In this document: piece after piece, positions 30,664 to 39,320 of the stretch
Layout of the letters: the number at the start of each line of letters is the position of its first letter
How positions within the stretch are numbered: the first letter of the stretch is position 1
Assembly (NCBI GenBank): GCA_964343575.1
Contig: CAYFJV010000001.1
Span: 472,705-536,704 of the forward strand
Direction: 5' to 3'
DNA length: 64,000 nt
DNA from: an uncultured Methanosarcinales archaeon
Lineage (GTDB): Archaea > Nanobdellota > Nanobdellia > Woesearchaeales > GW2011-AR9
Translations under genes and position numbers: made by a program
Notes under the pieces: generated by a model
Databases searched by the model: none
Seen by the model: only the letters and a program-made list of their open reading frames with translations
Told to the model about the DNA's origin: nothing

Positions 30664-30788
30664 ATTCTATATTTTTTCTTGGGGAAATTTTCTGTTTTTA
30701 ACAGAATTTAAGGCATTTTTCAAATTTAACCACTTTTCTGTAGTGAAATTTAGAAAACTTTATAAATAGGGCTTTTTGGGGAAGGTTG

Positions 30789-32735
30789 ATGTCAATTACT
30801 CTTGAACCTGAAACTCCAGAAAGAAAATTTCCCATGTATCATTTCCATGCCAGTACAGATGTGGGGCTTCAAAGGAGCGAAAATCAAGACAGATACTTAG
30901 CTGAGGGTTTGGCTGGAGAGCTTGGTCTTTTTGTTGTTGCAGATGGTGCTGGAGGTTACAAAGGGGGGGCGCTGGCTGCTCAAACTACGGTCGATGCTTT
31001 TCTCGAGACACTCAAAGAAGTAGTTGGGGAAAGTGATACGGGCAGAAGGTACTTAGAGGCAAGGGATGATTCTGCAGACTCTGATTTAGAGAGATATGTT
31101 CTTAGTAAAAAGCAAGCAGCCCATGTTGTTCTAGAAGGGAGCCGACGTGCTAGGCGAGATGTGCTTGCCCTACAAGCAAGTGACAAAGAGTTAGCAAATG
31201 CTTCATCAACAGTTGTTGTGGCTTGTCTTTACGAAATTCCAGAGGAAGAAAGGGTAAAGAGAGGACCAAGTGTGGGGGTTGCCTATGCTTGGTTGGGAGA
31301 TTCAAGAGCTTACAAACATGATTGTATAAAGTCAAAATTAGAACAACTCACAAGCGACCATGATGGAGCAACTTATTCTCTCTTAAAGAAGGGAATTGAT
31401 CCCAGAGAAAGTAGAGAAAATGAGAGAATGGCTAAAGACCATGCGGCACAAGGAAAATTAACCGCTTGTGTAAACATGGAAATGCCAGATCTCTTCGCAG
31501 ATGATCCAATCTTAGAGGGCGAAGGTTATGTTCACCATACCACATTGGGTTCAAACGAATCACTTCTACTTACCTGCGATGGATCTACAGACAAAACATA
31601 CAATGGAGAGCTTGAACGAATTTGTAATAGGAATACTTATGGGGGGGCTACTCAAACTGGAGACCTTCGAGAGATAAACAAAGAAATTCTTCATCTTGCA
31701 AATCAACTACGGGGGGGCCACGATAATATAACTACAATTGCAGTTACCGCAGACTACATTGGAGATGATAATGAGAGAAGAAAGCGAGAAAGAAGGAAAT
31801 GGGAGAAAATAAGGCTTCGTGAACTAAGAGAATATGCTCTTTTGTCAGAAGAAGTTGTCGATAAAGCTGCAGGCCAGATTGGGCGCCTCCAGAGAGATGT
31901 GGGAAAACTCACTCAAGCAAAAGAAGAGCTACAAGGTAACTCAGATCAAGCAGCTAAATTTAGTAGGGAGTGGAAGGAAGCGTGTGAGCAACGTGATGAA
32001 CAAATTAGGAAAGGTAATGAAGCCATTGCTAACCTCAACACGACAAATGCTGCGCTTACAGCCCAAATCGCTGAAGGTCAACGGCAATACACTCGAAGAG
32101 GAAGATGGTTAGGAGCTACAACTGCAGGATTTGTTCTGACAGGTCTTGTTGCCCTTGCTTCAACTGCAGGAAATCTGTATCAAGCACATCGACTCAATCA
32201 AGCAAGAGCTCTTGCTGCTCAGGGACTTACTGCAGAATCGTGTGAAAGTGCTCATCCTTGTCCAAAAGAACAAATTCCGGCAACTTATTGTGATGCTGAC
32301 GTTGCAGGTGCAATTGAGCCATTGCAAAGAAGAGTTACAGAATTAAATGGTCAAGTAAGCGACTTAGAATCAAGTAATGCTGCTCTTAGAAAAGCTGCTC
32401 CAACTGAAGTAGACTGTTCAGTTCCTTCTTTAGATGAACTTACTACAAGGGCAGATGTTCTTGCATGGTCTGAACAAGCTTGTTCTGCGACAATGGAAAC
32501 CCACACAATGGCAAGTGTAGCAATTAGAAATTATACTGCTGCCCACCAAAGAATCCCGGTTGCTGTTCTCGCAGGTGAGATTAATTGTGGGGAAGCGAGA
32601 GTAAGATACCAAGAGGTCGTAAGTGGACCTCTCTCAGCAGAGCTTGCACAAAATGGTGATGGCGCTGCCCTTATGAAAGGAGATTTTGACCGACAAGCAA
32701 AAGAAAATCTTGCAGTTGTATGTCCCGAAGAATGA
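30789..32735 (+). CDS. PP2C (PPM) Ser/Thr phosphatase with coiled coil, TM and Cys-rich C-terminal domain
   Basis: DVGLQRSENQD, VVADGAGG, WLGDSRAY, LTSDH, LLTCDG, GGHDNIT. Confidence 0.9.
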   Translation: MSITLEPETPERKFPMYHFHASTDVGLQRSENQDRYLAEGLAGELGLFVVADGAGGYKGGALAAQTTVDAFLETLKEVVGESDTGRRYLEARDDSADSDLERYVLSKKQAAHVVLEGSRRARRDVLALQASDKELANASSTVVVACLYEIPEEERVKRGPSVGVAYAWLGDSRAYKHDCIKSKLEQLTSDHDGATYSLLKKGIDPRESRENERMAKDHAAQGKLTACVNMEMPDLFADDPILEGEGYVHHTTLGSNESLLLTCDGSTDKTYNGELERICNRNTYGGATQTGDLREINKEILHLANQLRGGHDNITTIAVTADYIGDDNERRKRERRKWEKIRLRELREYALLSEEVVDKAAGQIGRLQRDVGKLTQAKEELQGNSDQAAKFSREWKEACEQRDEQIRKGNEAIANLNTTNAALTAQIAEGQRQYTRRGRWLGATTAGFVLTGLVALASTAGNLYQAHRLNQARALAAQGLTAESCESAHPCPKEQIPATYCDADVAGAIEPLQRRVTELNGQVSDLESSNAALRKAAPTEVDCSVPSLDELTTRADVLAWSEQACSATMETHTMASVAIRNYTAAHQRIPVAVLAGEINCGEARVRYQEVVSGPLSAELAQNGDGAALMKGDFDRQAKENLAVVCPEE

Positions 32736-37679: not shown

Positions 37680-37775
37680 GACTTGGCCTTGAATCACTCC
37701 TTTAAGAGTTTTATCATTTTTTTGTGCACAATCCAAAGATTTATTTAGTGTCTGGTCTTCTCTTTTAGAGGGATT

Positions 37776-39320
37776 TTGGTGAGAGAAGAAAGAAAAGAAT
37801 ACCGTCAGATAAACAAATGGCAAGTGCTTGCTGTGGTTTCTATGCACCTTGTTCTTCTTGCACTCTTTTGGGTGGAAACAAAACCACTTGATTGGGTTGT
37901 GTTTGCTGTTCTTTATTTTCGGGTATTTTTTATCACCGCAGGTTATCATCGCTACTTTGCGCACCGTGCGTTTAAGACCAGCCGCTGGTTCCAATTTATT
38001 CTGGCACTCGGTGCGACATCAAGTGCGCAACGTGGCGTGCTTTGGTGGGCAGGACATCATCGCCACCACCATCGCTTTTCTGATCAAGAAGAAGATGTAC
38101 ACTCGCCAATCAAAGGTTTTATTTGGAGCCATGTTGGTTGGACCACAGATGCTCGTTTTACTGCAACACGTTATGACTACGTTAAAGATTTTATGAAGTT
38201 CCCCGAACTTGTCTGGCTGAATAAACACCCTTATGTTGTTTGGGGAAGTCTTGCTCTTCTTACTTATTTGATTGGGGGTTTGAGCACTTTGCTTGTTGGT
38301 TTTGTCCTATCAACAGTAGTTATTAGCCATGTAACTTTTTGCATTAATTCTCTTGCCCATGTTTTTGGTAAGCGGCGTTATGCTACAAGCGATACCAGTA
38401 AAAACAACTTTCTGCTTGGCCTGTTTGGCTTTGGCGAGGGTTGGCACAATAACCATCACCACTATCAATCTTCTGCACGTAACGGTTTTTTGTGGTGGGA
38501 GGTTGATTTTTCTTATTACATTTTGAGGGTGCTCTCTTGGTTTGGCCTGGTGTGGGATTTGCGTGAGGTTCCACAAAGAGTTCTGGAGAGAAATTTGTTG
38601 GGCGTTGGTGCAGTTGATGAAGGAGAGCTTGTTGCTGCGCAAAAAAGGCAAGAATATTTAGGGAGAAGAAGTCCCTTGTGGAGCATTGGGGCTTATGCTG
38701 CGCACGCACTTGTCTTCTTGGGCAGCATTACTATGCTGGTAGTTAGTGTTGTTTTGGGAGCTTTACACAGTCCTGCCCCGGTGATTGTTGGGGCAAGTTT
38801 GTTTGGCTCTTTTTTGTTATTGTATTTTGCGGTAAAGATTTTGTTGTATTATTTCCCTCTGAAAAATTTGGAAGGGTGGGGAAAGAAGATGAAATTGTTT
38901 TGGAAAGGTCTTGGACACTTTAATGCAGTGAGTCTTTTTCTTTTAGTTGCTGCTGCCTACACACCAATTGTGCTTGCCTTGCCATCACTTGCTTGGGGAT
39001 GGAGCTTGTTTGGCCTGCTTTGGGGACTTGCTGCCTTTGCTTTGTTGTATCGGGTGCTTGCGCGCAGATTTGGAGTTGTGTTTTATGGAATTGCTGGAGT
39101 GCTGCTTTTGACTGCGCTTGTTTTGAGTATGGTTCAAGTTAGAATAGTTTTTAGTAGCTCAGCACTTGCTCTTTTGTTTGTGGGCGTGTTTTGCTTTGCT
39201 TTATATTATTACATTCGTCCTGCGCTTCCAGTTTATAGAGTTCAAGGGCTGGGGCATTTGGTCTTGCTTTTAGGGAGTTTAAGTCACTTTCTCTTTTTGG
39301 CAGGTTACGTGTTGGTGTAG
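37776..39320 (+). CDS. Delta9-type acyl desaturase fused to a degenerate HlyIII/PAQR membrane domain
   Basis: His boxes GYHRYFAH, HHRHHHRFSD, NSLAH and GEGWHNNHH; C-terminal AAAYTP and GHLVLLLGSLSHF. Confidence 0.88.
   Translation: MVREERKEYRQINKWQVLAVVSMHLVLLALFWVETKPLDWVVFAVLYFRVFFITAGYHRYFAHRAFKTSRWFQFILALGATSSAQRGVLWWAGHHRHHHRFSDQEEDVHSPIKGFIWSHVGWTTDARFTATRYDYVKDFMKFPELVWLNKHPYVVWGSLALLTYLIGGLSTLLVGFVLSTVVISHVTFCINSLAHVFGKRRYATSDTSKNNFLLGLFGFGEGWHNNHHHYQSSARNGFLWWEVDFSYYILRVLSWFGLVWDLREVPQRVLERNLLGVGAVDEGELVAAQKRQEYLGRRSPLWSIGAYAAHALVFLGSITMLVVSVVLGALHSPAPVIVGASLFGSFLLLYFAVKILLYYFPLKNLEGWGKKMKLFWKGLGHFNAVSLFLLVAAAYTPIVLALPSLAWGWSLFGLLWGLAAFALLYRVLARRFGVVFYGIAGVLLLTALVLSMVQVRIVFSSSALALLFVGVFCFALYYYIRPALPVYRVQGLGHLVLLLGSLSHFLFLAGYVLV

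Follow-up and report, generated by a model that had tools for sequence, protein, structure and literature searches.

What could an archaeon do with a fatty-acyl desaturase, and why should such an enzyme carry a second, seven-helix membrane domain in the same chain? Both questions are raised by one gene in a 64,000-nucleotide stretch of DNA (the window) from an uncultured archaeon of the GTDB order Woesearchaeales. A single open frame of 514 codons (window 37776–39320, + strand) had been read in a preliminary description as a Delta9/OLE1-type desaturase fused to an HlyIII/PAQR-like domain, through which the archaeon might remodel acyl lipids taken from a bacterial or eukaryotic partner. Its start is likely the GTG at 37779, which we favour over 37776. 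The features of the gene are as follows (coordinates are those of the window).

37776–39320, + strand: complete gene of the fusion, coding for 514 aa, or for 513 if translation begins at the likelier GTG 37779; about 11 membrane helices; full-length homologues known
37767–37773, + strand: AGAGGGA, putative ribosome-binding-site-like motif read from the sequence, 5 nt before GTG 37779
37803–38585, + strand: delta-9/DesC-like membrane desaturase domain, about residues 10–270 (PF00487, SCD1 alignment, DesC1 identity, structure match)
37947–37964, + strand: His box 1, HRYFAH (H58, H63; SCD1 alignment, family comparison)
38058–38072, + strand: His box 2, HRHHH (H95, H98, H99; SCD1 alignment, family comparison)
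38346–38360, + strand: NSLAH motif (N191, H195; SCD1 alignment, family comparison)
38445–38459, + strand: His box 3, HNNHH (H224, H227, H228; SCD1 alignment, family comparison)
38586–38672, + strand: cytoplasmic linker of some 29 aa that contains a basic helix and a conserved D-x-G-E; length near-constant across fusions
38673–39317, + strand: degenerate seven-helix TrhA/HlyIII (PAQR, CREST) domain (profile, structure and pairwise-score matches)
38835–38849, + strand: CREST SxxxH site, Ser and His both missing (motif as defined in PMC3146951, in part)
38922–38924, + strand: conserved Asp site where PAQR helix 3 begins, occupied by another residue; a second alignment puts the column two residues earlier, likewise without Asp
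38958–38966, + strand: YTP motif at the outer end of PAQR helix 3, kept; TP invariant in 9 of 9 fusions
39243–39287, + strand: PAQR helix 7; first His of HxxxH missing, second His (H494) and SH His (H504) kept

Reality and genomic setting of the fusion

Logan, NCBI and JGI data contain eight further clusters with full-length members, which are 39–56% identical to the fusion and have the same layout and a homologous linker. Since these are independent full-length homologues, the fusion is no product of misassembly or of a lost stop joining two genes; these homologues already refute an artefact of that kind or a contamination, which has almost no chance of being the explanation, and the location of the gene in a 665-kb contig among archaeal ribosomal genes, together with its native codon use, speaks against it too. 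The genes for ribosomal proteins P1, L1 and L10, 2–4 kb upstream, are of archaeal type (P1 clears the cut-off of its archaeal model, and L1 and L10 score highest on archaeal models) and make the neighbourhood an archaeal one. In codon use the gene falls in the 41st percentile among 739 ORFs of the genome, and in GC3 in the 91st; the genome itself comprises 1.21 Mb in six contigs and is 95% complete and 0.6% contaminated. Neither the divergent kinase-like gene that adjoins the fusion nor the two adjoining genes of no assigned family offer a clue to lipids, and a scan for sigma-70 promoters and terminators stayed at chance level, sigma-70 models not covering archaeal promoters. Also in the window (30786–32735, + strand) is a gene for a 649-aa protein that combines a PP2C-type phosphatase domain with a coiled coil, a single membrane helix and a C-terminal region containing Cys.

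The family now comprises at least nine clusters with 13 sequences, plus one fragment cluster (P0278). Five entries (the fusion itself and P0002–P0005) covered 97–99% of the query among the best 120 of 7848 matches in the first protein search, full-length P0005 and P0122 were among the 150 matches listed in a profile search of all 1.84 billion 50% representatives, and a profile of the C-half run against longer proteins gave six matches, three of them new (P0271–P0273); since this last search missed three known members, the census is incomplete. Representative lengths are 493–514 aa, with no truncated one in the nine clusters, while the identity between distant members is 47–70% in the N-half and 23–42% in the C-half. 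The only record with a name, which belongs to the P0272 cluster, is labelled 'bacterium', so that the architecture may not be confined to archaea. No second fusion was found in archaeal genomes (60 relatives, 113 of the family, 400 of the order and 400 of the phylum, in overlapping sets) or by two scans of genome contigs; a metagenome search returned only two ordinary stand-alone TrhA genes, and plasmid and phage collections gave 188 and three records, none of which covered 80% of the query. Some other long desaturases (P0188, P0147, P0128, P0159, P0145) bear soluble extra domains, by eye DUF1365-like, glycosyltransferase-like or a tandem double desaturase; a PAQR-like hydrophobic tail is seen in none of them. 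Our literature search met with no paper describing a desaturase–PAQR fusion, a gene that annotation tables of DPANN genome papers may nevertheless list. The fusion is thus a real, rare and apparently undescribed architecture of two known families.

The desaturase half

The N-half matches Pfam PF00487 (FA_desaturase) over residues 40–231 (E 1.9e-18; 67.6 bits against a cut-off of 29.7), and residues 17–270 align with SCD1 of mouse (E 1e-28) and human (E 6e-26). All nine iron-site histidines and the Asn of NxxxH are present, and the His boxes, described earlier as intact, are so in all nine fusion proteins. An AlphaFold model built from six family rows (pLDDT 65.6, pTM 0.47; pLDDT about 60–70 in the PAQR part) has the SCD1-like four-helix fold (Foldseek E 7e-8; Z 20.4 over 254 aligned residues, rmsd 3.7). 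From its sequence this half looks like an active enzyme, and by analogy it would probably place a cis double bond near C9, a regiochemistry that we infer from homology only.

Its match to the NCBIfam DesA model (NF049918), at 79.9 bits, lies below the 400-bit cut-off, and the DesC1 protein of Aulosira (desC1, BAZ78731.1) is 52% identical to it. The nearest relatives among the matches listed are 50–62% identical and carry labels that include Polyangiaceae (Myxococcota), Deltaproteobacteria, Nitrospiria and Acidobacteria; some desaturases among the close bacterial relatives share their operons with genes for an FAD oxidoreductase, a DUF1365 protein and a cyclopropane synthase. Of the SCD1 residues that contact CoA, R155, D156, N148, R188 and W262 differ and K189 is conservatively replaced by Arg (one of six kept), in a comparison that maps six residues, leaves out N75 and G197, takes its contact list from PMC9825965 (in part) and is a weak classifier outside animals. 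The pattern resembles that of cyanobacterial DesC1, and with most contacts missing it hints, if weakly, that the substrate is lipid-bound, as it is for DesC.

The PAQR half

On sequence evidence the C-half is a PAQR-derived domain. It matches the NCBIfam TrhA model NF011669 over residues 308–509 (E 4.7e-9, 36–40 bits) below the 80-bit cut-off, scores 29–33 bits on TIGR01065 (hlyIII), below the cut-off of 172, and has no match to Pfam HlyIII (PF03006). One of the eight relatives, P0002, clears the NF011669 cut-off (84.6 bits), and four have no match to it. A profile of six C-halves finds the intact TrhA of the same genome with a probability of 99.6 (E 1e-24), and the single-sequence score of the C-half against this TrhA is 193, whereas none of 500 window shuffles scored above 99 and the next best among all other ORFs of the genome was 85. 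Seven helices appear by hydropathy and in the AlphaFold model, matching the estimate of about seven further in-frame segments, and the AAAYTP and GHLVLLLGSLSHF motifs singled out at the time stand in the C-half as written.

In the structure search AdipoR2 and AdipoR1 rank first after SCD1 (AdipoR1 with Z 14.1 over residues 298–514); rhodopsins reach Z 13.0, so near to this that the fold alone is not specific for PAQR. Run against the sequences of solved structures, the C-half profile returned no matches, and an atlas search gave desaturase clusters only, with no usable match for the C-half. The predicted loops carry 2–4 K/R on the inner side and 0–1 on the outer, a distribution that matches an N-in PAQR topology and would be compatible with a desaturase whose C-terminus lies in the cytoplasm.

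What defines the CREST superfamily is the trio of SxxxH, Asp and HxxxH, and Per1 became inactive once either the His of SxxxH or the first His of HxxxH was lost (PMC3146951, in part). The C-half keeps only one of these four metal ligands, the last His; the replaced Asp had been noticed before, and to it we can add both the Ser and the His of SxxxH and the first His of HxxxH. Very probably, then, to judge by its residues, the C-half is non-catalytic. Its relatives retain from none to all of the ligands (P0005 four, P0002 three, P0003 one, P0004 none, the P0272 group none or one), and all four are present in 22 of 24 archaeal and six of eight other stand-alone TrhA rows.

The loss is one-sided. 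Across six non-redundant fusions the mean pairwise identity is 0.44 in the outer halves of the helices and 0.25 in the inner halves (0 of 5000 permutations), as against 0.48 and 0.50 in 22 stand-alone TrhA proteins; the halves were assigned by inferred topology, and the permutation test takes columns as independent, so that its p-value is optimistic. The outer halves are kept in PAQR helices 1–4 and 7, and helices 5–6 are without TrhA motifs. An outer-leaflet half that is conserved over a decaying cytoplasmic half, unlike the situation in stand-alone TrhA, suggests selection for a non-catalytic role.

Origin and distribution

In a tree with only eight non-archaeal or unassigned rows, two loci left out and one row misaligned, the nine C-halves group as a single clade (support 100), which sits on a long branch within DPANN TrhA proteins; on this tree the metal ligands were apparently lost more than once. 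A tree that joins the C-halves to the TrhA of the same genome is not rejected (AU test, p 0.37). In the desaturase trees the fusions fail to form one clade, and a grouping of three fusions with archaeal stand-alone desaturases is not rejected (AU test, p 0.28). The stand-alone delta-9-like desaturases of the order, 33–35% identical, form a long-branched clade of their own (100/100). The simplest reading of these sequences is that the desaturase of the fusion would have been acquired from bacteria separately from the stand-alone archaeal ones.

Desaturases occur in 18 of 401 genomes of the order and HlyIII above cut-off in 25 of 401, both counts including this genome. Among the other 400, 17 have a desaturase and 24 an HlyIII/TrhA, with no overlap where about one would be expected by chance. 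Stand-alone desaturases of the order thus occur without TrhA, and a desaturase has no general need of a PAQR partner. Acyltransferases of the PlsC family are found in 104 of 201 genomes of the order (a tally that takes in four unpublished genomes, G147, G156, G167 and G218, each with a match), so acyl-lipid handling is common in the lineage, while their presence in six of 14 genomes with a delta-9-like desaturase shows no enrichment.

Other observations within the order concern separate genes. One genome (G051:C11, about 114800–118300; L002, L104, L110) has a stand-alone delta-9-like desaturase together with a GpsA-like gene and two PlsC-family genes, a bacterial-type phospholipid cluster in an archaeon. 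Eight genomes (L006–L013) have a second, front-end/delta-6-like desaturase with a QIEHHLFP box and no cytochrome b5 domain seen, and cytochrome b5-like proteins occur in two (G039:C33, G040:C34).

Lipid and electron-transfer genes of the genome

Among the selected families searched, the genome (95% complete) has no match to PlsC, AMP-binding, PlsY, GGGP synthase or ketoacyl synthase, nor to GpsA, polyprenyl synthase, ACP or DXR. Within that selection this shows a genome without lipid backbone synthesis of either type, and the archaeon seems to be of a symbiotic type, unable to build its own membrane lipids. A UbiA protein of the decaprenyl-phosphate phosphoribosyltransferase type is encoded, and a patatin gene is present. 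Genes resembling CarS and archaetidylinositol-phosphate synthase lie side by side (L029:1402-2486), both below cut-offs; they fit archaeal ether lipids and count against scavenged acyl lipids, as does the lack of an acyltransferase with which to rebuild such lipids. Matches to CMAS were partial (116–127 of 273 positions) and look like generic methyltransferases, and we set them aside. Two weak SLT-domain proteins with hydrophobic N-termini (G000:C1:587394-588542, - strand, and C2:241283-243040, + strand; E about 4e-6 and 2e-4) have lytic-transglycosylase-like motifs that hint at contact with bacterial cell walls.

As to electrons, neither a heme-copper oxidase nor a cytochrome b5 match was found, and crude motif screens of the genome for b5, flavodoxin and bd oxidase gave nothing convincing. 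A 2Fe-2S ferredoxin gene (G000:C1:199564-199830) adjoins genes for a superoxide dismutase and a peroxiredoxin-like protein, on which alone, with no heme-copper oxidase, the case for exposure to O2 rests. An intact TrhA with four metal ligands is directly followed by an FAD/NAD-binding reductase (G000:C1:138455-139978; L005:1429-2952), whose own gene spans C1:139220-139978. The gene scan suggested earlier has thus turned up a ferredoxin and the missing backbone synthesis, and no cytochrome b5.

A possible function and its rivals

The best explanation we can offer, a tentative one that falls just short of probable, is that the protein desaturates acyl lipids scavenged from bacteria in a reaction that depends on O2 and ferredoxin, and that its catalytically dead PAQR bundle serves to bind or present lipid or to stabilise the enzyme. 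In this 11-helix membrane enzyme the N-half, with its ligands in place, would act as a di-iron desaturase and, at the cost of O2 and electrons, introduce a cis double bond into ester-linked fatty-acyl chains of membrane lipids, the electrons most likely passing from NAD(P)H through the flavin reductase of the genome to the 2Fe-2S ferredoxin and on to the desaturase. Since the archaeon shows no route to such lipids, a bacterial partner or prey would be their source, and their fluidity may be tuned by desaturation. The C-half, a TrhA/PAQR bundle whose hydrolase-type metal site is lost, could persist in a non-catalytic capacity, with its conserved outer-leaflet half binding or presenting lipid or else stabilising the enzyme. 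The scavenging proposed in the preliminary description thus agrees with the missing backbone synthesis and a plausible ferredoxin chain, and disagrees with the CarS-like gene pair and the lack of an acyltransferase or acyl-CoA synthetase; for the eukaryotic partner it had offered as one lipid source we found no evidence.

A less eventful history is conceivable, in which co-regulated neighbour genes for a desaturase and TrhA fused once and the PAQR half has since been slowly decaying ballast or a mere anchor. The faster evolution of the C-half, its long branch, the disappearance of every TrhA motif from helices 5–6 and the intact TrhA elsewhere in the genome would all follow; yet no member of the nine clusters is truncated, though desaturase identity falls to 47%, and conservation concentrated in one leaflet half is unexpected under neutral decay, so we consider this unlikely. 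The enzyme could also have another substrate or purpose, be it host acyl-CoA, a host-membrane lipid at a contact site, an ether/isoprenoid chain or the consumption of O2 and NAD(P)H. For this speak the archaeal lipids to which the CarS-like and inositol-phosphate-transferase-like genes point, a genome without an acyltransferase match, and the operons of bacterial relatives, whose content suggests specialised fatty acids. The genome has no match to an acyl-CoA synthetase or ACP, however, the CoA contacts of SCD1 are not preserved, and we know of no delta-9-type enzyme that acts on phytanyl chains; on balance we think a different substrate or purpose improbable.

Quite improbable, in our estimate, is a bifunctional ancestor whose PAQR half freed or exposed a saturated chain on which the desaturase then acted; some members may still work in this way, and here the activity would be residual or delegated to the stand-alone TrhA or patatin. 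Both of these genes are present, the metal ligands are complete in P0005 and nearly so (three of four) in P0002, and AdipoR2 has been argued to release saturated chains from phospholipids by hydrolysis (PMC9531299, in part). Against it, both histidines essential in Per1 are missing here (PMC3146951, in part), most members are without most ligands, which were apparently lost more than once, and PMC9017321 offers no demonstration of hydrolase activity in bacterial TrhA.

The fusion physically unites two protein families hitherto linked by genetics only, and it touches the open question of how TrhA, PAQR-2 and AdipoR2 promote unsaturated lipids. With both parts in one chain, and with natural members that have from zero to four metal ligands, catalytic and scaffold roles could be tested directly. 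We think it unlikely that the fusion is a natural 'Rosetta stone', telling us both that PAQR proteins act directly on desaturases in the membrane, where the outer half of their bundle would bind or present saturated lipid without the metal site, and that a DPANN archaeon lives within a membrane of bacterial ester lipids desaturated by itself. That an archaeon without genes for lipid synthesis has an acyl-chain desaturase bears on the question whether some DPANN archaea live on bacteria and carry bacterial lipids.

Comparison with known systems

Two published accounts place PAQR proteins outside the Archaea: PAQRs are said to be missing from them (PMC9017321, in part) and CREST members not to be found there (PMC3146951, in part), an absence that these texts ascribe to ether lipids. 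In contrast, 25 of 401 genomes of one archaeal order encode a PAQR protein, this one two of them. Bacterial fatty-acid genes and lytic transglycosylases are on record for some Woesearchaeota, and whether these archaea have bacterial hosts is an open question (PMC8204110, PMC10936187, both in part); the word 'desaturase' is nowhere in the main texts of these two papers, and the desaturases mentioned in PMC9948471 and PMC13753752 are carotenoid ones only. Selective uptake of host lipids by a DPANN symbiont has been reported (PMC11035636, in part).

Like cyanobacterial DesC (Aulosira desC1) and SCD1 (PDB 4YMK, 6WF2, 4ZYO), the fusion has the four-helix fold with nine His and an Asn; unlike them it carries at its C-terminus a seven-helix PAQR domain rather than cytochrome b5 and sits in an archaeon without fatty-acid synthesis genes, and unlike SCD1 it is mostly without the CoA contacts. 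The stand-alone delta-9-like desaturases of the order, such as the one of G051 beside gpsA and two PlsC genes, belong to the same family and lineage, but have a coiled-coil or no C-terminal extension and no PAQR domain.

With TrhA/YqfA/HlyIII, the bacterial class III PAQR, the C-half shares seven helices, the TM1 His and the YTP, W-x-LFG and SH motifs. It differs from TrhA in being joined to a desaturase, in lacking three of the four metal ligands and the motifs of helices 5–6, in falling below the family cut-offs and, as regards published TrhA, in its archaeal setting. The trhA gene of E. coli belongs to the FabR regulon, and its mutants are poorer in long unsaturated fatty acids by a mechanism that is unknown (PMC9017321, in part). 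AdipoR1, AdipoR2 and C. elegans PAQR-2 (PDB 5LXG, 5LXA, 6KS0), of which the AdipoRs are the best structural matches of the C-half, are linked by genetics to desaturation and membrane fluidity (PMC9531299, in part). These are separate zinc hydrolases that act through other proteins, whereas the C-half described here is without the metal site and is covalently tied to the desaturase itself.
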